Virus record (IMG/VR): IMGVR_UViG_2788499997_000004
DNA length: 15,916 nt
Direction: 5' to 3' (one strand)
Source: a virus
Taxonomy: Duplodnaviria > Heunggongvirae > Uroviricota > Caudoviricetes
Part shown: positions 1-15,916 of the stretch, piece by piece
How the letters are laid out: each line of letters opens with the position of its first letter
How positions within the stretch are numbered: position 1 is the stretch's first letter
The notes under the pieces: generated by a model
Database searches by the model: none
Told to the model about the DNA's origin: nothing
What the model saw: the letters and a program-made list of their open reading frames with translations, nothing else
Program-made: the position numbers and the translations under genes

Positions 1-327
1 CCAGCCCTTGCATCAAATAGCCTTGAAACAACGAATGAAGTTCAAAAAATCCTTCAAACACTCAATGCAAAAACTGACAATGTATCTCGCTATACAGAAG
101 TCCCACAGATTATGGCAAACTACAATGATAATCTCATCAGTTTTGCCATGTCTACAGAAACCATGCTGGAAACAATGCTTGGAAATTATACATCCAGCGA
201 TTATATGGCGTGGGCTGAAAGTGCATATAATGATTTTGTTGACTCACTGAATACTTTAAAATATTTAAGAAGTCAGATTGACTTTGTTATATATAGAAAT
301 GTATATGGAGGTGAAGAGAATGAATAA
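1..327 (+). CDS. Hypothetical protein, 5'-truncated by the window edge
   Basis: Frame 1 is open from base 1 (PALASNSLETTNEVQKIL...) to TAA 325-327, so the 112..327 ORF is only its C-terminus. The stop overlaps the start of the next gene (ATG 320). Confidence 0.75.
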   Translation, partial: PALASNSLETTNEVQKILQTLNAKTDNVSRYTEVPQIMANYNDNLISFAMSTETMLETMLGNYTSSDYMAWAESAYNDFVDSLNTLKYLRSQIDFVIYRNVYGGEENE

Positions 328-1534
328 TGATTCCCTTATCATGCAATACGATGCACAGATTAATAGGATTGAAAAAGAATATAGAGAAGCTCAATCAAGG
401 GCAAAGAGTCTAAGAAAAAACCTCGAAACAATCGCTGAAAAAACCTGCAATTTTAAATATGCTATCAAACAACTGGGTGGCCCTAATGAAATCTTCAAGA
501 TGAGTGATGGCCAGTTAAGAGATTTCATCATTACCAATATCATAGAGCAGAAGCAGGAATTTATGCAGAATATTCGAGAATTACAGCAATTATATCTGGA
601 ATGTCAAAGAGAAAATCAGGAATTGGCTTCTAAGGTGTTGTCGCTTCAGGAAGCATTGGAGAGAAATGAGGGAAATAATAAAATCTTGCATGCATCTACA
701 CCACCTCCTCCAACATTTTCAAATAGTGAAGAGCCTTCTCAGGATAAAGCAGTGGTAGACGACAAGCTGATTATGGGAGGAGAAGTGTATGATATTGCAA
801 GAGTTGTTCAAAGACTCACAGTATACCAGGAAGAAATCGTCAAAGTCATGGGAGAAAAGGGTTATTCGGAAACTGCCGAGATTTTTGGTGAGGTTATGAA
901 AAGGATTGATATTCAGGAAACAACACTGAAGAATGAGATGAGAAACCTTTCTGAAAAGCTTGTTGTAGAGAGTGAATCCATTTCAACATTTCTAAGAAGA
1001 AACCTATCGCTGTATAGATTAACGCAACTTGGAGAAGCAGTCTATAAACGATTAACAGAAAAAACTCCTGTTAAAGCTCAAAGGGATAAATTGGAATCAC
1101 AGCATTCAACGCTTGAACATGCCTATCTCATAAAAGATACTGCGAGTATCCTTGAAACTTTAGGTTATACAAATGTCACATATGATTCAAAAGACAATCA
1201 GATTCAGGTTGCGGGTGGTAACAGATATGTCCCAGATATCAGTGCCGATTTTTCTCCTACAGTCAAGACTTACTGGGAATGCGAATTAGGACATCATAAA
1301 GATGCAGACTTTTTTGAAAAGTTACAGAAAGCAGCAAAGGTGACTGATACGCTTTATGTCATTACTCCACGTAAGGAAGTATCTGATAAAATGAAAAAAC
1401 AGATTGGTAGATATAAGGCTTCAGTTGTGACAAAACAGATGAAAACGCAGTTGATAGTTTTTGTAGGGACAATCAGTCAATTGAAGACAAGACAGTTGTT
1501 CTCTAATAAGGATTGTCAAATAAAAATAGGGTAG
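320..1534 (+). CDS. Replication-relaxation (Replic_Relax)-like protein with N-terminal coiled coil, 404 aa
   Basis: SD GGAGGTG 307-313 favours ATG 320 over 278. Architecture: ~110-aa coiled coil, TPPPPT linker, wHTH wing LYRLTQLGEAVY, HSTLEHAYLIKD, then PD-(D/E)xK-like YVPDISA...YWECELG...FFEKL. This matches the Replic_Relax motif order as recalled. Confidence 0.65.
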   Translation: MNNDSLIMQYDAQINRIEKEYREAQSRAKSLRKNLETIAEKTCNFKYAIKQLGGPNEIFKMSDGQLRDFIITNIIEQKQEFMQNIRELQQLYLECQRENQELASKVLSLQEALERNEGNNKILHASTPPPPTFSNSEEPSQDKAVVDDKLIMGGEVYDIARVVQRLTVYQEEIVKVMGEKGYSETAEIFGEVMKRIDIQETTLKNEMRNLSEKLVVESESISTFLRRNLSLYRLTQLGEAVYKRLTEKTPVKAQRDKLESQHSTLEHAYLIKDTASILETLGYTNVTYDSKDNQIQVAGGNRYVPDISADFSPTVKTYWECELGHHKDADFFEKLQKAAKVTDTLYVITPRKEVSDKMKKQIGRYKASVVTKQMKTQLIVFVGTISQLKTRQLFSNKDCQIKIG

Positions 1535-1563
1535 TTATTCTAAAAGAATGACTATCCTTTTTT
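1529..1563 (+). terminator. Intrinsic terminator overlapping the stop codon
   Basis: GGGTAGTTATTC-taaaa-GAATGACTATCC stem (with G-U pairs) followed by T6. Confidence 0.75.
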
Positions 1564-1607
1564 GTATAGAAAAAAAGCCTCATAAGTGGCTCTTAAAAAG
1601 TGTCTAT

Positions 1608-2138
1608 CTATGGAATATTGTTTATAATCTCGCTATTTTCATCATACAATTGAAAATTATTAGCAGAAGGGTTATTGCTTCCATCTATCAAGTAGATATC
1701 TAATATATATTCATTGTTTAGTTCATTAGTATATGATTTGTTTTGATTTTCAAAAGAGTATTTGATAGCTTTTACGTTGTTTTTACCATATACAACAATT
1801 ATACTTCTCTCGTTTTCGAGATAATTAAAAGTATCAATATCCTGCGACGAGTCAGAACTTCCATAAAAATTGTATTTTGTTGAAAATAAATCATGATTTT
1901 CTTCGTATATCACAAGATGACATTCAGCAGCATTGTCCTGATATAGAACGAAATAAAGGTCATCTTTATATTTTATTTTCTCAATAGACTCGAAATTTTT
2001 ATCTCTTTGAGAAATGTCCTGAATCAAGAAGGGTAAAAAATCCTGAGAACGAGATAATATAACCACCCATAAAAGTGAAAGAACAAGTATTCCACTTAAA
2101 AATATATAAAATAAATGAATCCTTTTCATCTTACTCAT
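1608..2138 (-). CDS. Hypothetical membrane-anchored protein, 176 aa
   Basis: One N-terminal hydrophobic helix (LFYIFLSGILVLSLLWVVIL) then a soluble domain. The start overlaps the stop of the upstream gene. Confidence 0.75.
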   Translation of the reverse strand: MSKMKRIHLFYIFLSGILVLSLLWVVILSRSQDFLPFLIQDISQRDKNFESIEKIKYKDDLYFVLYQDNAAECHLVIYEENHDLFSTKYNFYGSSDSSQDIDTFNYLENERSIIVVYGKNNVKAIKYSFENQNKSYTNELNNEYILDIYLIDGSNNPSANNFQLYDENSEIINNIP

Positions 2139-2670
2139 TATTTGCTATCTGATTATATAAGCTTTGCACCTTTGGATATAGACAATGTATTGGATAATAA
2201 ATCAATATTCCTATACATATACTGATGAGATGAATGATGATATCACCGAAATCATATACATACTGCACATATAAAGTTAAAAAATTAATAAGTAACTGTA
2301 AATTTTCTATACCAAATATAATAGCAACAGAAATCAAAATTGTATTTTTAAGTGGAAATTCTTTTCTTAATATAAATCCAAATGGAATAAATAATACAAA
2401 ATGGAAAAGAGTGTATTCGGGTAGTAACTCCAATTTTAATATAGGATGATAGAAATCAACAGCCCACCTTAATTCTTCTCCAAAATGATAATTTTCTCCA
2501 GGATTTAAAACAAAAGGGAAAAATAAGACACTAATGACAAATGATATATATATTCCCACAAATCCTGAATAAAGTAATGAATAATTTTTAAAAAAGTAAA
2601 GAAAAGAGAATATAATTATTGCAATCACAATAAACAAAGGTATAGGAAATTGAATGATGTTCGAATCCAT
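2131..2670 (-). CDS. VanZ-like family membrane protein, 179 aa
   Basis: VanZ-like motifs HFVLFIPFGFIL, IFGIENLQLL and YDFGDIIIH, with ~5 TM segments. SD GGAG 6 nt before ATG 2670, inside the end of the upstream gene. Confidence 0.75.
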   Translation of the reverse strand: MDSNIIQFPIPLFIVIAIIIFSFLYFFKNYSLLYSGFVGIYISFVISVLFFPFVLNPGENYHFGEELRWAVDFYHPILKLELLPEYTLFHFVLFIPFGFILRKEFPLKNTILISVAIIFGIENLQLLINFLTLYVQYVYDFGDIIIHLISICIGILIYYPIHCLYPKVQSLYNQIANNE

Positions 2671-2671
2671 T

Positions 2672-3112
2672 TTAATCTCCAAAAATCACTCTTATTTGCC
2701 CATAGACTTTTCTACCAGAATATATATCTGCATAAGAGCTAGTAAGTCTAATAGAATATTTACCAGAAGGTAATTCACCCCAGCTTACAAATTTTCCAGA
2801 AGTCATCGCAACTGTTTTCTCTTTACCTGTTCTAGTTCCATCTCTAACGAGCTCAAAAGTCATTGTTTCTTTTGGCATATTTGTATCTGGATATAATGTA
2901 ATACTAATGCCACCTTTATTTGGAACATAACTACTAATACTAGCAGGAGTTTCATAATAATTACTAAAACTATAGGAATATGTAACAGTATTAGCAGTAC
3001 GTGTACTTATGTTTGGTTGCTGACTAGAAGAAATATTTTCTAAAGCATAAGTATTAGAAATCATACCAAAAGATAATAAACATGCTAAACATGCACAAAC
3101 TATTTTTTTCAT
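2672..3112 (-). CDS. Secreted hypothetical protein with Sec signal peptide, 146 aa
   Basis: SD AAGGAG. MKKIVCACLACLLSFGMISNTYA|LE fits an SPase I site. The mature part is S/T/Y-rich and looks beta-rich. Confidence 0.8.
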   Translation of the reverse strand: MKKIVCACLACLLSFGMISNTYALENISSSQQPNISTRTANTVTYSYSFSNYYETPASISSYVPNKGGISITLYPDTNMPKETMTFELVRDGTRTGKEKTVAMTSGKFVSWGELPSGKYSIRLTSSYADIYSGRKVYGQIRVIFGD

Positions 3113-3151
3113 ATTATATTTCTCCTTAATATTTGTAATTTACGGCCGCAA

Positions 3152-3174
3152 ATGTATTTTATCACGTAATACAT
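3152..3174 (-). promoter_or_regulatory. Extended -10 promoter of the 3-gene operon with overlapping inverted repeat
   Basis: Minus strand TGaTAAAAT (3164-3156). Inverted repeat ATGTATT (3152-3158) / AATACAT (3168-3174) flanks it. The -35 is weak. Confidence 0.45.
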
Positions 3175-3271
3175 GCTAAATGTAATAAACTTTTTTAAAG
3201 ATTATGTTAAGATAATGTAAATAGAGAAGAGAACCTTGAAAACGACATTTAGTAAATAAACAAATTATATA

Positions 3272-3300
3272 TTGAAAAATTTAGGAAAATATGTTATAAT
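3272..3300 (+). promoter_or_regulatory. Near-consensus sigma-A promoter
   Basis: TTGAAA (3272-3277), 17-bp spacer, TGtTATAAT (-10 at 3295-3300). Confidence 0.75.
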
Positions 3301-3306
3301 AACAAA

Positions 3307-3440
3307 TGAAAGAAAGGAAGTGTACCAATATTAATTTATTTTAATTAAAACAGCTTTAGAATCTGCCATATAACAATTAAAGCTAAAAAATATGTTATGA
3401 ATCAAGGTACACTATGACTTCTTTTATAGAAGTCTTTTTC
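3307..3440 (+). ncRNA. Candidate ~130-nt sRNA or attenuator leader
   Basis: Follows the promoter. Helices AGTGTACC 3319-3326 / GGTACACT 3406-3413 and AGCTTTA 3352-3358 / TAAAGCT 3378-3384. Ends in a terminator-like hairpin. No credible ORF. Confidence 0.45.
3416..3439 (+). terminator. Intrinsic terminator-like hairpin
   Basis: GACTTCT-tttat-AGAAGTC followed by TTTTT. Confidence 0.55.
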
Positions 3441-3444
3441 TTTA

Positions 3445-4100
3445 TCAATTTTATAAAGGTTTCATTCACACCTGGAGATAGTGTTTCTCAATTTATCTGT
3501 CTGGAAAGGAGGATTAAAGACAAGACAGGAGATGAAGTGAATGGGGTTTTATCAGCCCACATAGAATTTGTAATCTGCGGAAAAACTTATGCCTGTATTG
3601 TATAATTTCTGGCTCCCAGGACATTATATAGTGCAGGGGTAACATAAGGGCAAGACCAATGAGATACAACCAACCTCCATCATGTCTAAAGTTGGTTTCT
3701 ATGAAAATCGATACTGATATTCTAGTTGCTATTGGTGTATAGGATGTCGAGCTCGTAAACCCTCAAAGCCCAGATGGCGAGGTTGATAAGATACCTTATA
3801 CTGTTAAAGTCTAGATAATGCCCGGTGAGTTCTACCATGTAATATTTATATTGCTAAAATGACGGCGTGGAAGATGGTACCAGCAGACGAGGGAGGTCTG
3901 GACTGGTAGGGGGCAGTTCCCTTTTTAAGGTGTTTTGGAAACCCATGGAAGCATGGCAAAAGTCATGTAACTGTAACTGAGAAAACCTCGCGACGACTGA
4001 CCGACCGACGGAATACTCAATCCCTAGATGAGATAGTTTAACTATCTCCGTGTTTGATAGACCAATGCGTCTAGTCAAACCCTAGGGGGATTTTTTTATT
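3445..4100 (+). ncRNA. Candidate large structured non-coding element (RNA or ssDNA), family unassigned
   Basis: GC ~44% by hand count over 3601-4260, against ~15-20% in sampled lines just downstream. No ORF with a credible start. Many nested helices. Ends in a 3-way junction followed by T7 at 4091-4097. Confidence 0.55.
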
Positions 4101-4104
4101 TACA

Positions 4105-4256
4105 AGGGTGCTTCCTGCTCAGAGCTTCTCTCCCTCTAGAATGAAAGGTGGGAGCGAGCCCCTGTTTTTATCGAATGTTTTTATAAATTATGTAAGAACA
4201 GTTAGGGCAATGGCGAGCTTCCTTGGAAGCTCTGGGTGGGAGCACCTCCGTGCTCT
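4105..4256. other. GC-rich hairpin cluster (candidate oriT/sso-type element)
   Basis: GAGCTTCC-tt-GGAAGCTC (4215-4232) and GAGCAC-ctcc-GTGCTC (4240-4255). GAGCTTC...GGTGGGAGC is repeated near 4122-4156 and 4215-4243. Confidence 0.35.
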
Positions 4257-4281
4257 ACTTTAATGCAAAAGTTGGCTTTCG

Positions 4282-4412
4282 TAATAAAAAATTATCATTT
4301 TTATCCATATTTAGCCTTCTAATGATAAAAAATTATCACTCGTATCACAAAAATAGTGTTTCTATCATAAAAAGTAAGCTTTTGAGCCAAAGTGAGTGGT
4401 AAAAAAATATCA
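4282..4412. repeat. Three copies of palindrome TGATAA-AAAA-TTATCA
   Basis: 4323-4338 perfect, 4282-4297 one mismatch, 4397-4412 two mismatches. Confidence 0.6.
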
Positions 4413-4441
4413 TTTCTGTACAAATTAAAGAAATATCTATT

Positions 4442-4603
4442 CTTATATAATAGAAATATTCTTCTCTTACATCAGTAAAAGTTGTTTACTTTTGTAATAT
4501 ATTTCTTCTTATGTAATAGTAAAAGTTATTCACTTCTGTAACAGAAAAGTTAATTCATACATAAAGAGAAAAGTTTGATAGGGTTTTGATAGATTTTAGA
4601 TAG
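4442..4603. repeat. Degenerate ~22-24-bp tandem repeats (iteron-like) plus GATAG triplet
   Basis: AAAAGTT at 4477, 4521, 4545 and 4569. CTTwTrTAAYAG-like units at 4442, 4489, 4508 and 4533. GATAG occurs three times in 4578-4603. Confidence 0.6.
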
Positions 4604-4691
4604 TATTATTTTTTCTTTTGTATATAAATATAAGTTAAATAGATTATAATTAGGTTTTATAAGGTATTGCACTTATAATAGAATAATAGTT

Positions 4692-4732
4692 TTCTCAGAG
4701 AAGGTTACAGAGGCGTTCTCATTCTCAGAGAA
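4692..4732. repeat. Two copies of palindrome TTCTC-A-GAGAA
   Basis: 4692-4702 and 4722-4732, 30 bp apart. The second overlaps a predicted minus-strand -10. Confidence 0.6.
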
Positions 4733-4770
4733 TACTTTTTTTGTCTATATAATTCAAGTTATGCTTGAGT
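4729..4770 (-). promoter_or_regulatory. Operator TCAAG-N5-CTTGA over promoter TTGAAT-17-TATTCT, facing the repeat array
   Basis: Operator 4754-4768, -35 at 4757-4752, -10 at 4734-4729. The 20-mer AATTCAAGTTATGCTTGAGT is identical to 5246-5265. Confidence 0.55.
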
Positions 4771-4836
4771 TGGGAGCATATAGTGAGGGTTTTATAGGAG
4801 TGATTATTAACATAAATTAACAAAAATAAGTCACAT

Positions 4837-4903
4837 CTCAAGTTATACTTGAATAAGACAGAAAATATATCTTTTGTTGGGATGTTTATCAAGATTATTT
4901 TGA
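4837..4903 (+). promoter_or_regulatory. Two further TCAAG-N5-CTTGA operator copies
   Basis: 4838-4852 perfect (17-mer CAAGTTATACTTGAATA identical to 5470-5486). 4889-4903 has one mismatch. No -10 at 17-bp spacing for these copies. Confidence 0.55.
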
Positions 4904-4967
4904 GTATTGTTTTAGAAAACAGATGTTTTTGTTAGTTTTTCTCATAACATTAGTAATAGTGGTATAA

Positions 4968-4992
4968 TAAAAGAGCAGGGACAAGTCCCCGC
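4968..4992 (-). terminator. Intrinsic terminator of the minus-strand small ORF
   Basis: Minus strand GCGGGGA-cttg-TCCCTGC-tctttt. The stem pairs fully only on the minus strand (G-U) and starts 2 nt after the stop. Confidence 0.6.
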
Positions 4993-4994
4993 GT

Positions 4995-5183
4995 TTATTG
5001 CCTTTTCTGGCTCTTGTAGAATGTATCTACTAAATTGATTGTTACATCGGCAGTGATTGTAAGAACTAATGTGTCGAGAGGTAACATTTGTAGTGTTGTG
5101 AGCCATTCTATGATGTCCACTAAAATAATGAACAGAATGGCTTTCCAACTTTTCTTCAAGGCAGACAACAGTCTGCTTGCCAT
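4995..5183 (-). CDS. Small hydrophobic protein, 62 aa (MASRLLSALKKSWKAILFIILVDIIEWL...)
   Basis: Has its own promoter, SD GGAGGTG and terminator. The SD spacing is long (11-13 nt), and an out-of-frame ATG (5191) sits at better spacing. Confidence 0.5.
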   Translation of the reverse strand: MASRLLSALKKSWKAILFIILVDIIEWLTTLQMLPLDTLVLTITADVTINLVDTFYKSQKRQ

Positions 5184-5223
5184 AAAGACATTTTCACCTC
5201 CGTCGTTTGGAAGCGACAGAGGT

Positions 5224-5265
5224 ATTTTATTATATATATAAGTTAAATTCAAGTTATGCTTGAGT
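5224..5265 (-). promoter_or_regulatory. Operator TCAAG-N5-CTTGA over promoter TTGAAT-17-TAAAAT
   Basis: Operator 5249-5263, -35 at 5252-5247, -10 at 5229-5224. Confidence 0.65.
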
Positions 5266-5468
5266 CTAGACTGCATAAAAAGAGCTTATATAGATATAAA
5301 GTTGTCTATAGCGTATGTTCAATACAAGTTTATACTTTAAAAATACCTATAACACCATCTTTTTTTGTATGTGAGTTAGCTTAGACTAATATAGTTTGAA
5401 GAGCGTTGAGGAACCCCGTTATCGACGGTGTTATGAACAGTGTTATATGTTAAAGAGACAACATTCAT

Positions 5469-5508
5469 ACAAGTTATACTTGAATATGCCTACATTATTA
5501 CATAAAAT
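5469..5508 (+). promoter_or_regulatory. Operator (ACAAG-N5-CTTGA) over promoter TTGAAT-17-TAAAAT
   Basis: Operator 5469-5483, -35 at 5480-5485, -10 at 5503-5508. Mirror image of the 5224-5265 promoter. Confidence 0.65.
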
Positions 5509-5586
5509 AAAAGCGTACCAGCTCTAAATATATCTGGTACGTTGGTGATTATTATTTTAGGCGGTTGTTCGCAGGTACTTTTTCAT

Positions 5587-5745
5587 ATGTGCCTTCAATT
5601 CGCTATTCAATATATCACCGATATATTCCACCTCAATGACTACCAAGGAATTGTCGTGGAAGTTATCGTGATTGCAATGGTGAATATTGTTGTCATAATA
5701 ATTAACAATTTAAGAAATGACACTGGACAACAGGCCGAAAAGTAG
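5587..5745 (+). CDS. Small hydrophobic protein, ~52 aa (alternative TTG start 5542)
   Basis: Downstream of the promoter and an 8-bp 5' hairpin (5514-5541). TM-like IVVEVIVIAMVNIVVIII. Weak SD (AGGT). Confidence 0.4.
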   Translation: MCLQFAIQYITDIFHLNDYQGIVVEVIVIAMVNIVVIIINNLRNDTGQQAEK

Positions 5746-5772
5746 GGAACATACAAGATTTCCCCGCTTTTT
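5738..5772. terminator. Probable bidirectional terminator
   Basis: AAAAGTAGGGAA...TTCCCCGCTTTTTT between convergent ORFs. Confidence 0.45.
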
Positions 5773-5814
5773 TATTATAGCATAATAAATAGTATATTGA
5801 GAGGTTTTGTCTTA

Positions 5815-7140
5815 TTAAACATATGGTGTAATCAACCAATCAATCAAATTAATAGATTTAATACCATCATAAGAAGTATCTAAGCCTGTATTTAAAGAAA
5901 GAACAATTTTTTCATAGTTATCCTTTATTTTTTGAAGTGGTGTTAATTCTCTATCTCGTACTTCTTCACTTTCCATTGATTCAGTAACTTGAATATAAAG
6001 TTTCTCATCAGTCTTGGTGGCGATAAAATCTACTTCTAAATTGTCAACCTTTCCTATAGAAACATCATAACCTCTACGAAGCAACTCTAAATAGACAACA
6101 TTTTCTATAGCATGTCCACTATCTCTGTTTCTGACACCTAACAGGTAATTTCTAAGTCCAATATCAACGATATAGTATTTACCAAGTGTTCTTAAGAATT
6201 CTTTACCTTTGATATCAAATCTTTTGATATCATAAAAAAAGTATGATTCTAACAATGCATTTATATAAGCTTGAACCGTATGAGTACTTGGATTACCTTT
6301 TCGTTTCCCATCCTCAAGAAGCCCTTCATTGACTAGAGTGTTACCAATAGAAGAAACAGAAATATTGTTGCCTATATTATCTGCTAAAAATAGAATAATC
6401 TTTTTTAGAAGAACTGGGTCAGTAATTCTTTTTTGTCCTCTTCGATTTTCTCTCTCAAGAATATCTCTCATAATAACCGTAGAATAAATACCCTCAAGTA
6501 ATACAAATGCTTTTTCTTGGTCAAGTCCTACATCAGCAATACCTGGCATTCCACCAAAACGCATATAAGCTTCAAAAAGTTCTTGAAGGTCATAATATTC
6601 CCCGTTTTTATCAACAACTTGTTTGCGCGTGCCTCCTAAAGCACTTTTTCTTTCCCTGACTTCGAAATCATGAAATATTATAAATTCCATAAATGATAGA
6701 GGTAATACCTTAATTTCTATACATCTTCCTGACAAATAAGTTGCATATTCAGAGGAAAGCATATAAGCATTAGAGCCAGTTACATAGATATCGCAATTGA
6801 AATCAACACGGAAAGAGTTAATAGCATCTTCCCAGTTTGGAACTCTTTGTACTTCATCAAAGAAAAGATACATTCTTTTGTTAGGTATAATGTGTTGTTT
6901 AACATATTCATAGAAAGATTCACTATTCATATCCTTATAGGCATGAGATTCAAAATTCATTTCAAGTATCTGGTCATCATTAATCCCGCTTTCTTTTAAA
7001 TGTAGAATCATAAGCTTTAATAGACTGGATTTTCCACATCTACGAATTCCTGTTACGACTTTGACAGGCTCAGTGTCTTGAAATGCTATGATTTTATTCA
7101 AATATAAATCTCTTTTTTTGAGTTTATGACTATCAATCAT
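5815..7140 (-). CDS. ATP-binding protein, AAA_14 + DUF4143 (COG1373-like), 441 aa
   Basis: Walker A GIRRCGKS, Walker B YLFFDEVQ, YVTGSNA, LSGR, YMRFGGMP, KYYIVDIGL, IENVVYLEL, EVDFIA. SD AAAGGAGGT. Confidence 0.9.
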   Translation of the reverse strand: MIDSHKLKKRDLYLNKIIAFQDTEPVKVVTGIRRCGKSSLLKLMILHLKESGINDDQILEMNFESHAYKDMNSESFYEYVKQHIIPNKRMYLFFDEVQRVPNWEDAINSFRVDFNCDIYVTGSNAYMLSSEYATYLSGRCIEIKVLPLSFMEFIIFHDFEVRERKSALGGTRKQVVDKNGEYYDLQELFEAYMRFGGMPGIADVGLDQEKAFVLLEGIYSTVIMRDILERENRRGQKRITDPVLLKKIILFLADNIGNNISVSSIGNTLVNEGLLEDGKRKGNPSTHTVQAYINALLESYFFYDIKRFDIKGKEFLRTLGKYYIVDIGLRNYLLGVRNRDSGHAIENVVYLELLRRGYDVSIGKVDNLEVDFIATKTDEKLYIQVTESMESEEVRDRELTPLQKIKDNYEKIVLSLNTGLDTSYDGIKSINLIDWLITPYV

Positions 7141-7162
7141 TCGCTATACCTCCTTTAAGCCT

Positions 7163-7191
7163 AGTATAGCATAAACTTTTTAAAAACTCAA
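7163..7191 (-). promoter_or_regulatory. sigma-A promoter of the ATPase gene
   Basis: TTGAGT (7191-7186), 17 bp, TGcTATACT (-10 at 7168-7163). Confidence 0.65.
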
Positions 7192-7486
7192 CTTTATGCA
7201 CTGAAATGCAGAAAGTTCTATTATTTTACAATTATTTGCATTTGATAGCAGAAACTTACAAAAATGAAGTCTTTTTGTCAATTATCTACAATAATTTGAT
7301 GATTGATAGGGGTTTTGAATGTATTGAAACCTCCTCATCATCTCAATCAATCCTAAACAGAATGATTTCGAGTAGAGTTTTGAAGGAATGTGTCTAGAAA
7401 TCACTAAAAAATAGGGGTAAGACACACCATGACTATAAAAATGGGGAGATTTTTAGTATAATTTGAGGGTGAAAGGAGAATTAAAT

Positions 7487-8215
7487 ATGAACCATAATGA
7501 GAAAAAAGCAATAATAAATGAAATAAAAAATGATATTCAAAAGGAAAATGAAAAAATTTATAATGAAATAGATGAAATAAAAAAAGAAAGAAATTTCAAT
7601 AAGATAAATATGTTTTTGACTGTAGTTTCACTGTTAGCAAGTGTATGGATAGGATTTCAAGCAAATAATATAGCAACCACTTCTAACGAAATTAGTTCTA
7701 GACAGGAACCAATAATTGTAAATTATATTGAATCTGATGAAGATATAATATATGAAATTAAGGGGAATGAAAAAGAATATGAAGCCACTTCAAAGAAACC
7801 AGCCATTCAGCTGGTGCAAGGTTCATTGACAGAACTATATGGGATTATTTGCTATGATGAAAATATTCAAAATATAAAAGATATATCAAAAGAACAAAAA
7901 GAAAACTTAAATACTATAAAAGGGGCAACCATGCAATGGGGACCGAAAGACAATTATCAATTAGATAACAATAAAACGTATGATTATGCATTTGTTTATT
8001 TAAAGGATGGTAACGGAAACAGTTATATAAATTTAGTATATGTTGAAATGGAATATAAAGATGGTGAATTTATATGTTCAAGTCCTAAAAAAATAGATGA
8101 AATAGAACTATTACAATATAATAGTGGATATCAATACGAAAATACTATATTTAAAGAAATGATAGAAGACTATCAATATGTTTTAGACGTGTTTAAGACA
8201 GTTAGAAATAAGTGA
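7487..8215 (+). CDS. Hypothetical single-pass membrane protein, 242 aa
   Basis: SD AAGGAG favours ATG 7487. Charged N-terminal coiled coil, TM MFLTVVSLLASVWIGFQA, then an acidic soluble domain. Confidence 0.8.
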   Translation: MNHNEKKAIINEIKNDIQKENEKIYNEIDEIKKERNFNKINMFLTVVSLLASVWIGFQANNIATTSNEISSRQEPIIVNYIESDEDIIYEIKGNEKEYEATSKKPAIQLVQGSLTELYGIICYDENIQNIKDISKEQKENLNTIKGATMQWGPKDNYQLDNNKTYDYAFVYLKDGNGNSYINLVYVEMEYKDGEFICSSPKKIDEIELLQYNSGYQYENTIFKEMIEDYQYVLDVFKTVRNK

Positions 8216-8254
8216 TGTTATCATTAGAAAATGCTAAAAGTTAATATCAAAACG

Positions 8255-8280
8255 AAGAAAACCAAGGGTTTTCTTTTTTT
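8255..8280 (+). terminator. Intrinsic terminator
   Basis: AAGAAAACC-aag-GGTTTTCTT followed by a T run. Confidence 0.6.
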
Positions 8281-8359
8281 GTATTCAATTCAAAGAGAAT
8301 TATTTTTGTATCAAATAGCATATAATAATTCTTATTTATTTAAGAAAGAAGGAATACAT

Positions 8360-8602
8360 ATGAAAAGATACGGATATGTCCGAGTATCAAGCAAGGAGCA
8401 GAATGTAGCAAGGCAGGTAGAAGCCCTGCTTTTTTATCATATTGAAGAAAATAATATCTATATAGATAAACAATCTGGAAAGGATTTCAATAGAGATGAG
8501 TACAACAAAGACTGTAAAGAGCAAGGTGTTTTACAGTCTTTTTCACACAGTATTAATAGATATCATGTTAAATTTGTTAACATCTTTAATATTTATGATT
8601 AG
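8360..8602 (+). pseudogene. Truncated serine resolvase/invertase (N-terminal ~50 aa only)
   Basis: MKRYGYVRVSSKEQNVARQ...IYIDKQSGKDFNRDEY is the serine recombinase N-terminus. The GD...DRLGR motif and the HTH are absent. Similarity ends at ~8505. Confidence 0.85.
8507..8545. terminator. Perfect 12-bp hairpin terminator
   Basis: AAAGACTGTAAA (8507-8518) / TTTACAGTCTTT (8530-8541) followed by more T. Confidence 0.7.
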
Positions 8603-12217: not shown

Positions 12218-12345
12218 AAATACTCCTTTAGTAATCCATAAGATTTTTTTATGTGTTTTAGTTGTTTTAATATAAAAAGCATGATGATTTTTTTGACTAT
12301 GATTTGCTAGTCTGTGAATTTTTTAACAATATGTTAAGTGTCAAT

Positions 12346-12374
12346 ATGATACCATTATGTTTTATTGTTGTCAA
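12346..12374 (-). promoter_or_regulatory. Strong sigma-A promoter of the membrane protein gene
   Basis: TTGACA (12374-12369), 17 bp, TGgTATCAT (-10 at 12351-12346). Confidence 0.65.
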
Positions 12375-12410
12375 TTATAACTCATGAAAAACTCTAATAT
12401 AGTTTTATAA

Positions 12411-12464
12411 AGCACAAAAGTGCATTGATAATAAAATATAATTAATTTGTAAAACGTTTTACAA
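12411..12464 (+). promoter_or_regulatory. Promoter with shared element AGCACAAAAGTGCAT-N11-TATAAT and downstream 18-bp perfect palindrome
   Basis: 15-mer at 12411-12425, TATAAT at 12437-12442, TTGTAAAACGTTTTACAA at 12447-12464. Confidence 0.65.
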
Positions 12465-12494
12465 GGTTTATTTACTGAGTAGGGAGTATATAAA

Positions 12495-12821
12495 ATGTAT
12501 TATACATATAAAGAAATAGAACTTACTCTAGGATTATACTTTATTGCAAAACAGCACTTATACGAAATGAATATGGAAGAAAGCAGTAAAGCTAATCAAA
12601 CTACTTTTATGGACCTATATAATTATTATTCATATATTGTTCATCTCGTTGATTCTTGGCTACTTCTTTTATTCCCTGATGAGATTTTATTATTAGAAAT
12701 GAGAATAGATAAAGGAATGGGTTTTGATGATATATCAATTGTTTTAGGTTATGCAAATCATAGTTCTGTGCTTAGGAAATATAGACAAATAATTACGAAA
12801 ATTAAATTACGAGTAAATTAG
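12495..12821 (+). CDS. Putative ArpU/RinA-like transcriptional regulator (sigma-70 region-4-type HTH), 108 aa
   Basis: SD GGGAG. C-terminal LFPDEILLLEMRIDKGMGFDDISIVLGYANHSSVLRKYRQIITKI fits a region-4 HTH. It sits upstream of holin-lysin. Confidence 0.55.
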   Translation: MYYTYKEIELTLGLYFIAKQHLYEMNMEESSKANQTTFMDLYNYYSYIVHLVDSWLLLLFPDEILLLEMRIDKGMGFDDISIVLGYANHSSVLRKYRQIITKIKLRVN

Positions 12822-13068
12822 CTAGTGTAATTATTATATTCTATAACAAATAAGGAAGTTCTTTTTTTGTGTGATACATTGTTATATTATTTGAAACTTA
12901 TAATGCTAGATAATAGAGTTAATTCTAGAACTGATATAAAAAATTTTAAAATATGAATTATTTAGATGAGAATATAAATTTAATTATTTCTTGATGGACT
13001 GTGTCTTTATACTAATTGAAGAAAAATATGAAACGTATTCACTGACGCAATGAAAGGAGAATTTATTT

Positions 13069-13500
13069 ATGAAAAAAGCAATCATAAAAGTAGGTATTAT
13101 ATGCATCTTTATTTTAATTATATGGAATATTTTCAATGTTAATGATACTCTAACTTTTTTTCTAATAGGTAGTATGATTATTGACTATTGTTTAGGTACT
13201 TATACTGCTTTCCTACAAAAATCTACGAATTCCATCAATGGGAAATTAAGTTCAAAAGTTGGATATGCAGGTATCATGAAAAAAGTTGGAATATTAGTAA
13301 TGGTGTGGATAGGATATGAAATTGATGTCAATTTTTCTTTGAATATATGTAAAAATATGATTATTGTAGGATATTTAATTAATGAAATTATAAGTATAGA
13401 AGAAAATTTATCAACCATTGGTGTAGAAAAAAATGTGGCTATAAAAAAAGTAATAGCTATTCTAGAAAATTTTATTGATGGAGATGATGAAGATGTTTAA
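13069..13500 (+). CDS. Phage holin family protein (Phage_holin_4_1-like), 143 aa
   Basis: SD AAAGGAG. Motifs IIDYCLG, LSSKVGYAGIMKK, YLINEIISIEENLSTIGV. Confidence 0.85.
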   Translation: MKKAIIKVGIICIFILIIWNIFNVNDTLTFFLIGSMIIDYCLGTYTAFLQKSTNSINGKLSSKVGYAGIMKKVGILVMVWIGYEIDVNFSLNICKNMIIVGYLINEIISIEENLSTIGVEKNVAIKKVIAILENFIDGDDEDV

Positions 13501-14302
13501 GGGAGCTGATATTTCTAAACATAATGGAAAAATTGATTTTTCAATTATCAAAAACCAATTAGATTTTATTATTTTACGTGCTGCATACAGAGGAATAACA
13601 TATAGAAAAATCTACACTGATGAAAAATTTTTTGATAACATTGAACAAATTAATGAAATGAATATTCCTGTGGGATTATACATATATTCTACTGCTGTAA
13701 ATGAAAGTGAGGCTATTAAAGAAGCAGAATACTGTTTGTCGTTAGCAAAAAATTATAGGATTACTTATCCTATTATTATTGATATTGAAGATGAAACAAA
13801 TCAAGGTTGTTTATCAAAACAAGAATTAACCAATATTATTAAAGCGTTTTGTGAAACAATTGAAAATAATAATTATTATGCAATGTTTTATTGTTCGAAG
13901 TATTGGTATACAACAAAACTAGATTCTCAAGCTTTAAAAAAATATGACCGTTGGATAGCTCAATGGGAAGCTAAAGAATGTGAGATAGATTGTGGTATTT
14001 GGCAGTATACATCAAAGGGCAAAATTGTAGGAATTAGTGGCAGTGTAGATTTAAATTATTCTTATAAAAACTATCCATTAATAATAAAGAATAATGAGTT
14101 AAATAAAATAAAAAATAGAACTTATGAAGTAGGAGATAAAGTATCTTTTGATAGATGTTACATTTCAAGTGATTCTGATATATCATTATCTTCTTTGTAT
14201 CATAGTGGAATTATTACAAAAATAATTCCAGGAGCTAAAAATCCATATTTGATAGGTGATGGAATTTGTTGGGTACGAGAAAGTGATATTAAAAATATTT
14301 AA
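13493..14302 (+). CDS. GH25 muramidase (endolysin-like) with C-terminal SH3-like wall-binding domain, 269 aa
   Basis: SD GGAG 13480-13483 favours ATG 13493, overlapping the holin stop. GADISKHNG, PVGLYIYS, catalytic IIDIED, WIAQW, WQYTSKG, VDLN. C-terminal YEVGDKV...KNPYLIG...WVRESDI. Confidence 0.9.
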   Translation: MFKGADISKHNGKIDFSIIKNQLDFIILRAAYRGITYRKIYTDEKFFDNIEQINEMNIPVGLYIYSTAVNESEAIKEAEYCLSLAKNYRITYPIIIDIEDETNQGCLSKQELTNIIKAFCETIENNNYYAMFYCSKYWYTTKLDSQALKKYDRWIAQWEAKECEIDCGIWQYTSKGKIVGISGSVDLNYSYKNYPLIIKNNELNKIKNRTYEVGDKVSFDRCYISSDSDISLSSLYHSGIITKIIPGAKNPYLIGDGICWVRESDIKNI

Positions 14303-14443
14303 GAAACTAGTCAAGAATTCTCGGTTCATAGCGTAGCGATGTGCCGAGATGAATTGACTATATGTTTAAGTGTATATTTGTTATTTATACAAATATATTT
14401 AGATAATTAACAAATATAATCAAAAATATGATATACTATATGT

Positions 14444-14842
14444 ATGAAAGATAAATATACAAAAAGAAGAACTTGCGTCTACAACATCAATTATCATATT
14501 GTCTGGTGTGTCAAATATAGAAAGGGCATACTCACAGATGACATAGCCAAGGAACTAAAAGATATTCTACAACAGACAGCACAGGATAAAGGATTCATTA
14601 TTCACGAATGTGCTGTTGGAGATAGAAATCATGTTCATCTGTTTGTTTCTGCTCCACCAAAGATTGCTCCGTCCTATATAGTCAAAATGCTGAAGGGTAT
14701 CAGTGGCAGAAAGCTATTCATGAATCACCCTGATATTGCCACGAAGCTATATAATGGAACAATATGGAACCATAGCTTCTATATTGAGACGATAGGCTCG
14801 ACAAGCGAAGAAAATATCAGAAAATATATCAATAATCAGTAA
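14444..14842 (+). CDS. tnpA: IS200/IS605 Y1 (HUH) transposase, 132 aa
   Basis: YNINYHIVWCVKYRK, HUH motif NHVHLFV, LKGISGR, W..SFY, catalytic Tyr in IRKYINNQ. Confidence 0.95.
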   Translation: MKDKYTKRRTCVYNINYHIVWCVKYRKGILTDDIAKELKDILQQTAQDKGFIIHECAVGDRNHVHLFVSAPPKIAPSYIVKMLKGISGRKLFMNHPDIATKLYNGTIWNHSFYIETIGSTSEENIRKYINNQ

Positions 14843-14857
14843 ACAGGAGGTGAAAGC

Positions 14858-15916
14858 ATGGCGACAGCCTATAAAGCCTATAAATATAGAATCTATCCTA
14901 CTGATGAACAGGCTGTCATATTTCAGAAGACTTTTGGCTGTTGCCGTTTTATCTGGAACATGATGCTTTCAGATAAGATAGATTACTACAACAAGGAAAA
15001 GAAGATGCTGAAATGCACGCCAGCACAGTATAAGAAAAAATATGATTTTCTAAGAGAGGTCGACTCTCTAGCTCTGACAAATGTTCAATTGAACCTGCAA
15101 AGTGCATTTCAGAAGTTCTTCAAGGAAAAGAAAGCAGGATTTCCTCATTTTCATAGCAAGAAGAATACAAGGAAATCCTATACAACAAACAAGGTAGGCA
15201 ACAATATTGATATCAATGACAGATATATCAAGTTGCCTAAAGTTGGTCTTATCAAGATAAAAAGACATAGAGAACCATATGGTGTACTTAAGTCGGTGAC
15301 AGTATCTCAGACACCAACAGGAAAGTATTTTGTATCTGTTCTTTTCGAGTACGAAAACCAAGTACAGGAAAAGAATGATACAACCAAATCTGTTGGACTG
15401 GACTTTTCCATGAAGGAACTCTATGTTGACAGTTCTGGCCGTGAGCCAAACTATCCGCATTTCTACAGAAAGATGGAAAGAAGGCTTGCCAGAGAGCAGA
15501 GAAAGCTGTCAAAGATGTATAGAAAAGGGCAATTACAGTCCAACAGATATTACAGACAGAAGATAAAGGTCAACAAATTACATGAAAAGATAGCTAATCA
15601 GAGAAAGGACTTTCTGCATAAGCTATCACGACATCTTGTGGATACATATGACTTCATTTGCATTGAAGATGTCGATATGAAATCCATGTCACAATGTCTG
15701 AACTTTGGTAAAAGCGTACATGACAATGGCTGGGGCATGTTTACCAGTATGCTGGCCTACAAATGTGAGGAAGAAGGTAAACATCTTCAGAAGATAGACA
15801 AATGGTATCCAAGTAGCCAGACATGTCATGTGTGCGGGACAGTTCATGATATTACAAAAGACCTGTCTGTCAGGGAATGGACATGCCCAGACTGTCATAC
15901 ACATCACAACAGAGAT
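14858..15916 (+). CDS. tnpB: RNA-guided endonuclease TnpB, 3'-truncated by the window (absent from the ORF track)
   Basis: SD GGAGGTG. I translated 353 uninterrupted codons: MATAYKAYKYRIYPTDEQ, RuvC-I VGLDFSMK, RuvC-II ICIEDV, zinc finger CHVC...CPDC, RuvC-III HNRD at the last bases. Confidence 0.95.
   Translation, partial: MATAYKAYKYRIYPTDEQAVIFQKTFGCCRFIWNMMLSDKIDYYNKEKKMLKCTPAQYKKKYDFLREVDSLALTNVQLNLQSAFQKFFKEKKAGFPHFHSKKNTRKSYTTNKVGNNIDINDRYIKLPKVGLIKIKRHREPYGVLKSVTVSQTPTGKYFVSVLFEYENQVQEKNDTTKSVGLDFSMKELYVDSSGREPNYPHFYRKMERRLAREQRKLSKMYRKGQLQSNRYYRQKIKVNKLHEKIANQRKDFLHKLSRHLVDTYDFICIEDVDMKSMSQCLNFGKSVHDNGWGMFTSMLAYKCEEEGKHLQKIDKWYPSSQTCHVCGTVHDITKDLSVREWTCPDCHTHHNRD

Follow-up and report, generated by a model that had tools for sequence, protein, structure and literature searches.

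Within the window (the whole 15,916-nt stretch of DNA that was analysed, IMG/VR record IMGVR_UViG_2788499997_000004) a 2.7-kb interval separates the protein genes, and in this interval lies a GC-enriched block at positions 3445–4100, that is probably the body of a structured non-coding RNA belonging to a new family and measuring about 0.8 kb (about 0.95 kb or more with read-through). The GC content of the block is 41.3%, that of the whole window is 30.8%, and the GC profile climbs to 38–46% across 3445–4260. The computed count over 3601–4260 (291 of 660) reproduced exactly the hand count given in a preliminary description, which was made from the sequence alone and had proposed for the block a new large non-coding RNA, a ColE1-like primer RNA or a single-strand origin. 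The island that carries the block has as its conserved unit, in every clade-A copy, window 3247–4771, directly downstream of a gene for a protein of 404–418 aa. Its copies are treated here as two clades, clade A (16 distinct copies) and clade B (L071–L074). The features of the island, with their z-scores and minimum free energy (MFE) where these apply, are the following:

3272..3300, + strand: predicted promoter, TTGAAA-17 nt-TGTTATAAT, found by consensus scan, with an extended −10 (TGnTATAAT) and 11 of 12 consensus positions
3307..3442, + strand: leader scaffold composed of a 5′ purine tract, a closing helix (3319–3326/3406–3413), a hypervariable insert (about 3328–3405) and a terminator
3445..4100, + strand: putative body of the large RNA, the GC-enriched block, recognised by strand-specific fold, absence of a family match, divergence and covariation
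3497..3528, + strand: predicted hairpin CUGUCU/AGACAG (CUGCUC/GAGCAG in clade B) with three consecutive compensatory pairs, 3500/3525, 3501/3524 and 3502/3523
3588..3641, + strand: predicted long hairpin of about 24 bp that contains TATAAT 3601–3606 (pair probability >0.7, z −4.7, compensatory pairs)
3842..3912, + strand: near-invariant GC-rich core, with two differences between or within clades in the alignments
4021..4096, + strand: predicted terminal three-way junction followed by U7, with stems 4022–4027/4082–4087, 4030–4037/4041–4048 and 4052–4062/4069–4080
4105..4252, + strand: predicted rod-like 148-nt hairpin 3′ of U7 (MFE −64.4, z −5.3), crossed by a contig of RNA library X15

The statement of the preliminary description that the block holds no credible coding sequence was borne out by the relatives of its open reading frames (ORFs), by the frames compared with Pfam and by indel variants, all of which were negative for coding. 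The longest ORFs are of 63 aa and 74 aa. For the 74-aa ORF zero relatives were found among 5.8 billion proteins, and the stop-to-stop frames reached in Pfam a best E of 0.03–0.05, far below curated cut-offs, so that none was significant. The 63-aa ORF (3414–3605) is the only one of the block picked by gene callers; its entries in protein collections are spurious calls on this same DNA only, and its frame is disrupted by indels in natural variants, i.e., by an additional T after 3513 in L042–46 and by a 1-nt deletion in clade B. A decayed gene was rejected on these grounds, as the 74-aa ORF has no relatives, the 63-aa ORF is spurious and Pfam was negative in every frame.

No known RNA family was matched either. 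A cmscan search against Rfam on both strands, that the preliminary description had suggested, gave with Rfam 15 no match at gathering score in the whole window and no relevant match at E ≤ 10 over 3000–5900, the latter search being run with permissive filters. The covariance model of ROOL (RF03087) found no match on either strand even at E ≤ 10, the models of GEBRO (RF02988) and ARRPOF found none at E ≤ 10, and that of GOLLD (RF01998) did not match, nor were tRNA genes found adjacent to the block; ARAGORN reported no tRNA or tmRNA. The earlier view that the block cannot be assigned to ROOL, GOLLD, ARRPOF or GEBRO is supported by this result.

The comparison of island copies indicated that the block evolves slowly. 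Among clade-A copies it differs from the window by 2.1–4.7%, as against 9–16% at the synonymous sites of the adjacent gene (proportion of nonsynonymous differences, pN, 0.004), which gives a block/synonymous ratio of 0.13–0.52 (Fisher p 5e-14 to 0.02). The variation within this clade is concentrated in the leader (3297–3446) and the repeat array (4447–4750), and the block contains 1–6 variable columns per 50 nt. Clade B was found through a search with the 418-aa protein at 90% clustering, where relatives 79–81% identical were obtained, and its contigs L071–L074 carry the island at 79% overall identity. The divergence of clade B from the window is as follows (pS is the proportion of synonymous differences):

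Block: 15%
Rod hairpin: about 30%
Leader: 41%
Palindromes and repeats: about 50%, essentially unrelated
Adjacent gene: 23% of nucleotides, pS 0.66, pN 0.12

Since the flanking non-coding DNA differs by 30–50% between clades A and B, no other DNA of the region is as well conserved in these alignments as the block, which evolves at nearly the nonsynonymous rate and is judged from them to be under strong purifying selection.

Thermodynamic prediction indicates that folding better than chance is confined to the + strand, where 3445–4100 has an MFE of −190.3 kcal/mol (z −4.17; −3.5 with independent shuffles); for the − strand the values are −152.9 kcal/mol, z −0.07 and z −0.8. All helices listed in the preliminary description can be read off the sequence at the positions given there, namely ACCAAT 3655–3660/ATTGGT 3731–3736, AACCAAC 3668–3674/GTTGGTT 3691–3697, TACCAG 3878–3883/CTGGTA 3903–3908, CCATG-gaag-CATGG 3943–3956 and the terminal three-way junction 4021–4087, followed by T7 at 4090–4096. 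For some of them the thermodynamic model favours different partners, e.g., 3808–3816/3896–3904 replaces the local TACCAG hairpin. The three-way junction has a high predicted probability (z −4.4 for 4021–4087 with U7) and probably forms, together with U7, a Y-shaped terminator. Its stems are constant between the clades except for 4059/4072, where a single A-to-G change in one clade-A copy retains pairing, and the loop-closing 4037/4041; otherwise it is the loop letters that vary. This invariance is consistent with the fold and is not a test of it. The two differences in the core 3842–3912 are U to G at 3861 and a 1-nt insertion after 3858. The rod 4105–4252 retains its basal stem in clade B, with divergence in the apical part, and variants fold at −55 to −67 kcal/mol; this rod may belong to read-through transcripts as their 3′ portion, or may be an element of its own. 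In clade A, natural variants of the hairpins 3585–3650 and 4105–4252 are more stable than random mutants. The TATAAT at 3601–3606, to which the preliminary description had drawn attention, is present, yet it is not a promoter, because it is buried inside the long hairpin 3588–3641 and is mutated by changes that preserve the hairpin pairing (TATGAT or TATAGT in variants, TGTCAT in clade B).

The fold, for which the window sequence was the only input, was then mapped onto the two-clade alignment A4, and the compensatory changes found among the homologues, a check that had been proposed from the start, match the structure predicted beforehand. Twelve of the 208 predicted pairs are altered on both sides in clade B, and standard pairs result in 10 of the 12 in L071 and 11 of the 12 in L074. 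The number of doubly changed cells is 44, as compared with 17.1 ± 2.7 after shuffling (0 of 500 shuffles reach the observed value) and with 0–10 when partners are slid by 1–3 columns, and the covariation score is 0.102 versus 0.022–0.033 in controls. Apart from the hairpin 3497–3528, compensated pairs are 3463/3543, four in the long hairpin (3589/3640, 3598/3631, 3600/3629 and 3604/3625, accompanied by eight one-sided pairing-preserving changes), and 3570/4016 and 3577/4009 in a long-range helix. The one-sided changes likewise differ between the strands: in clade B 21 keep and 18 break pairing on the + strand, while the same changes read on the − strand give 11 kept and 28 broken, and among clade-A transitions in Watson–Crick pairs 13 keep pairing on the + strand only and 3 on the − strand only (binomial p 0.02). 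Covariation within clade A alone was uninformative, as this clade is too shallow (one double pair, the observed value being reached by shuffles).

Upstream of the block, the promoter at 3272–3300 is the best in the gene-free gap and has its predicted start at about 3307. Across the clades it survives in the form TTGTAA or TTGCAA plus TGATATAAT. The sister element L077, the neighbouring protein of which shows 79% identity, has TTGAAA plus TGGTATAAT. The leader that follows (about 135 nt) ends in a weak intrinsic terminator, i.e., a hairpin at 3416–3434 and U5. Its 40–80-nt interior is swapped in each lineage, and the purine tract, the closing helix and the terminator are kept. The closing helix reads GUGUACC/GGUACAC in the window, GUGUAUUG/CAAUGCAC in L043, GUGUACUG/CAAUACAC in clade B and GUGUAC/GUACAU in L077; comparison of these sequences shows a helix preserved through compensation, with a different insert in each of the four. 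The − strand of the leader likewise has a good predicted fold (z −3.2), and no − strand promoter-like site was found by consensus scan near the leader (3300–3520). The leader motif has no second occurrence on the contig, so the promoter-leader cassette is not present there in many copies. The boundaries proposed earlier have to be revised, in that transcription would begin at about 3307 and not at 3601, behind the promoter 3272–3300 and with the leader included. At the other end, the transcript may extend through the 4105–4252 hairpin.

Most of the public sequencing runs containing this DNA are metagenomes of chicken gut; six are RNA libraries, and contigs of four of these were placed. Contigs on the block come from RNA libraries of four studies, namely X15 (a single contig, 3320–4384) and X19 (3325–3534), both of which cross the leader terminator, X17 (3412–3871 and 3842–4023) and X20 (3763–3992, with seven differences). 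The contig starts in two studies (3320 and 3325) lie 13–18 nt after the predicted start, which is a weak hint only. Coverage in X15 is uneven, with none at 3137–3319, 4385–6700 and 12300–15916, and the absence of a contig proves nothing. The + strand and the transcript ends are deduced from the promoter, the terminators and the asymmetry of G-U pairing.

Several observations weigh against a structured RNA of this kind or limit what can be concluded about it. No homologue outside this lineage was found in the searches that were run. With only two diverged clades, each compensatory pair is one event, so that the shuffle counts overstate significance, and since the 3′ half (3700–4100) is almost invariant, covariation is informative for the 5′ half only. 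The 18 one-sided changes mentioned above disrupt predicted pairs, and the helix 3570–3580/4006–4016 shows two compensations but four broken pairs and is uncertain. Over the full 656 nt the clade-A variants are no stabler than random mutants carrying the same changes, and MFE prediction and two RNAalifold runs conflict on long-range helices, which leaves the global fold uncertain. The RNA support consists of contigs, which carry neither strand nor true ends, and DNA carry-over is formally possible; moreover, contig depth on the block is moderate (14–17) versus 145 for the neighbouring operon in X15. Nevertheless, the absence of an Rfam match, the RNA-library contigs, the purifying selection and the compensatory changes together favour the new non-coding RNA among the possibilities listed in the preliminary description. 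It is quite likely that the RNA gene of this new family is read on the + strand from 3272–3300 and that its leader terminator is able to limit read-through. Whether the RNA acts in trans, as a stand-alone molecule serving the element, is a closer call that falls just short of even; this suggestion is made partly by analogy with the ROOL-class long non-coding RNA (lncRNA) of Lactobacillus salivarius.

The way in which such a locus might operate can be outlined. The near-consensus promoter 3272–3300, probably constitutive, would start + strand transcription at about 3307, and the leader would form first, as a conserved scaffold around the hypervariable insert with the weak terminator 3416–3434 and U5 at its end. 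Transcripts that pass this terminator would enter the 650-nt multi-domain body and would stop at the Y-shaped terminator 4021–4096, which itself seems to be partly read through. By such presumed attenuation, the leader terminator would set the amount of full-length RNA, and the RNA could work as a scaffold, a decoy or a self-assembling particle in maintenance of the element or in competition with rivals.

Large, intricately folded bacterial RNAs are rare, and RNase P, group II introns, OLE, GOLLD, ROOL and raiA revealed unusual biochemistry or architecture. The RNA described here is a new family of a known kind, the large ornate RNAs of mobile DNA, as it fails the ROOL, GOLLD, GEBRO and ARRPOF models. 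The ROOL RNA (RF03087) includes an abundant 520-nt megaplasmid lncRNA of L. salivarius (PMC5737381, PMC5643018, PMC12286853), whose deletion lowered megaplasmid copy number and which is not essential (PMC5643018). With ROOL it shares the size (about 0.6 kb), the multi-domain organisation, the occurrence in low-GC Gram-positives as optional cargo of plasmids or prophages, a predicted promoter of its own and apparent expression in the gut. Unlike ROOL, which is found in several phyla, it is limited to one narrow lineage, it lacks a model match at E ≤ 10, and its leader combines a terminator with a hypervariable insert. ROOL is noted for very high abundance and for forming oligomers; the block is known from its sequence and from contigs. 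GOLLD (RF01998) is likewise a very large ornate RNA tied to mobile DNA in Firmicutes, but the block fails to match its model and has no nearby tRNA genes. GEBRO and ARRPOF are, similarly to the block, GC-enriched structured non-coding stretches in low-GC plasmids that adjoin replication functions (PMC5737381). GEBRO lies between the single-strand origin (sso) and the double-strand origin (dso) of a rolling-circle plasmid, and ARRPOF lies within a minimal replicon, in a region required for plasmid replication (PMC5737381). Those motifs are of 223–349 nt, in contrast to 650–950 nt here, no model match was obtained, and the G-U-dependent pairing and the presence in RNA libraries favour in the present case RNA over single-stranded DNA (ssDNA). 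The setting of the block comprises SSB and DnaE genes upstream, no Rep or relaxase family among the neighbours scanned, and no skew switch.

The distribution of the island was followed in several collections. When the neighbouring protein was compared with GTDB genomes, the sole match was a metagenome-assembled genome (MAG) of Candidatus Massilimicrobiota merdigallinarum from chicken gut, which carries window 1–7746 at 98% identity on a 57.7-kb contig together with genes for a type IA topoisomerase, a split DnaE-type polymerase, SSB, an FtsH-like protease and an AAA_5/VWA pair. Further island copies were retrieved by means of the spuriously called 63-aa ORF, which occurs in more than 300 blocks of the protein-collection index (about 190 more for the variant P0039); the island is also present on contigs of up to 256 kb in other assemblies, and the public genome assembly GCA_900624845.1 has it on contig UYXN01000004.1. 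The block was not found by BLAST in the phage and plasmid collections, and whole-genome BLAST, run on 81 genomes of the family, 401 of the order and 399 of the class, located it in G001 only, the other matches being short AT-rich noise around the terminator. An exact-pattern scan gave no match in IMG/VR and one contig, 99% identical, in the JGI metagenomes; the neighbouring protein had no match among viral contigs. The island occupies one locus in large mobile elements, at least 57 kb long and either megaplasmid-like or integrated, that belong to Massilimicrobiota-type Erysipelotrichales of the chicken gut. Relatives of the neighbouring gene at 39–60% protein identity have no island, and nhmmer was negative in their loci; in these distant relatives the gene is directly followed by small genes, a 1,214–1,276-aa gene and Tad-pilus-like genes. 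Since these relatives lack the island, it is regarded as optional cargo at a fixed site. The gene downstream of the island varies, i.e., the window has a − strand small ORF and an AAA_14 ATPase, L042–47 have a 323-aa or 358-aa + strand gene, and L071–74 have other small ORFs; in L042-type and L074-type elements + strand genes lie 0.5–1 kb downstream.

In the sister element L077 the region 5013–5900 was observed to occupy the same site as window 3272–4100, with the same promoter and leader scaffold, and to contain an unrelated non-coding block of 766 nt at 5135–5900. The GC content of that block is up to 57%, and its z is about −5 on both strands; it has no nhmmer similarity to the window RNA, no Rfam match and no BLAST match in plasmid and phage collections. 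Judged from its sequence, it may represent a second large-RNA family in the same slot. It is a tentative and rather doubtful proposal that the locus is an exchangeable slot, in which a conserved promoter and a leader with swapped insert gate unrelated RNAs of about 0.7 kb; the assignment of a type 1 RNA to the window and clade B and a type 2 RNA to L077 is equally speculative. If this were true, it would imply interchangeable RNA effectors of mobile elements, e.g., incompatibility, exclusion or defence determinants, and the slot RNAs might self-assemble like ROOL and GOLLD.

The RNA could alternatively act in cis, as a replication or copy-control transcript that primes or activates an origin in the downstream AT-rich palindromes and repeats, with the variable leader as the target of an antisense copy-control RNA. 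Such a role recalls the ColE1 RNAII primer, which is controlled by the antisense RNAI from the opposite strand and whose persistent RNA-DNA hybrid is a substrate for RNase H cleavage and Pol I extension, as well as the read-through primer of pAMbeta1 and the attenuated rep leaders of pIP501, pAMbeta1 and pT181; the comparison with these systems is by description. The order of promoter, long folded transcript and AT-rich repeats is shared, and so is a leader with an intrinsic terminator and a variable segment. The island also adjoins, on its upstream side, a module with SSB and a DnaE-type polymerase, the clade-A leader and repeats are hypervariable like incompatibility determinants, the palindromes 4260–4440 are constrained, the X15 contig continues to 4384, and the − strand of the leader, too, folds well. 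Deletion of the ROOL-class lncRNA of L. salivarius reduced megaplasmid copy number (PMC5643018), and ARRPOF lies in a replication region (PMC5737381). Nonetheless, both this explanation and the earlier ColE1-like proposal are weakened, because the repeats do not travel with the RNA (the body is 85% identical in clade B and the downstream palindromes and repeats are about 50% different), the island is dispensable cargo that elements at 39–60% protein identity do without, and no GC-skew switch occurs at the island on the 57.7-kb contig. The last is a weak check. Cumulative skew of that contig tracks gene orientation; a switch of both skew and gene orientation lies about 7 kb upstream. Coupling to a fixed 3′ origin of ColE1 type was not found, as the DNA beyond 4260 is about 50% different in clade B. 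In addition, L077 places a different RNA behind the same leader, DnaA boxes are at chance level, no − strand antisense promoter is predicted near the leader, and no rep gene follows the leader. A cis-acting replication transcript is thus considered unlikely.

It seems still less probable that the block serves as a long, structured 5′ leader for cis-regulation of the genes downstream, or that it is a functionless transcribed relic. The raiA motif, of similar geometry, was at first taken for cis-regulatory (PMC5737381), and the cassette does open with a terminator-bearing leader and is followed in L042-type and L074-type elements by the + strand genes mentioned above; however, the downstream gene is not constant among copies, the RNA ends in two terminator-like structures, and a relic would not evolve four times slower than synonymous sites or show compensatory pairs. 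The least credible of the explanations, to be entertained only at a very low probability, is a DNA-level element that folds as ssDNA after rolling-circle replication or transfer, i.e., a single-strand origin or an oriT-like site, as the preliminary description had also considered. The folding is dense and strand-dependent, the location is a mobile element, GEBRO-type motifs were proposed to act as ssDNA (PMC5737381), and the long, nearly perfect basal stem of the rod 4105–4252 would form in DNA too. Yet the strand asymmetry and the conserved pairing depend on G-U, which is weak as G-T in DNA, and the same changes preserve far fewer pairs on the complementary strand, where pairing is largely lost. 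This dependence on G-U, the strong conserved promoter and the contigs in RNA libraries of four studies weaken the ssDNA explanation, and the neighbours scanned included no member of a rolling-circle Rep or relaxase family.

As a structured RNA, the island would add a further large-RNA family of about 0.8–1 kb that is present in gut RNA libraries, is under apparent purifying selection and has helices backed by compensatory changes. Its testable features are the terminator-bearing leader with a swappable insert and the sister element, where the same leader precedes another large RNA. It would also extend the recurring, unexplained association of large non-coding RNAs with megaplasmid-like elements of gut Firmicutes.

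The surroundings of the island provide some further observations. The constant upstream neighbour (window 278–1534, + strand) encodes a 418-aa protein in which a long coiled-coil hairpin is combined with a winged-helix (MarR/PadR-like) domain and, at the C-terminus, a PD-(D/E)xK-like motif (PD...ExE...K). It has no Pfam or NCBIfam match and has 413 clusters of relatives; a structure search returned winged-helix and weak nuclease-like matches only (E about 3e-3) and no replication-initiator fold. Between this gene and the island, a three-gene operon lies at window 1608–3112 on the − strand (176 aa, a VanZ-like protein of 183 aa, and 146 aa), on which the deepest RNA contig of the window in X15 was placed (1759–3136, depth 145). 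The operon is absent from L042–46, which indicates a separate insertion.

Downstream of the block, window 4282–4412 contains three TGATAA-A4-TTATCA palindromes, that diverge by 3–4% in clade A (pS 12%) and are unconserved in clade B; this pattern is more in keeping with a lineage-specific protein-binding site than with membership of the RNA. The segment 4772–5224 holds a 93-aa − strand ORF and one operator pair and is missing in the L038 and L042–47 copies; as homology jumps there from 4771 to 5225, the segment is taken as a separate small indel cassette. The DnaE-type polymerase gene in L052:4794–10569 (G001 contig C50, about 24.8–30.6 kb) is in two pieces, of 468 aa (PHP and the N-terminal part of alpha) and 485 aa (finger, HhH and OB), with three ORFs of 211–242 aa between them. 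Elsewhere it is one gene of at least 1,182 aa (L068) or occurs in other copies as pieces of 414, 454, 740 and 766 aa. Finally, window 8231–8602 (+ strand) encodes a truncated serine-recombinase fragment of 123 aa, with the first ~50 residues of the resolvase domain only, and since identity with the G001 contig stops at about 7746, this region is regarded as a recombination boundary.

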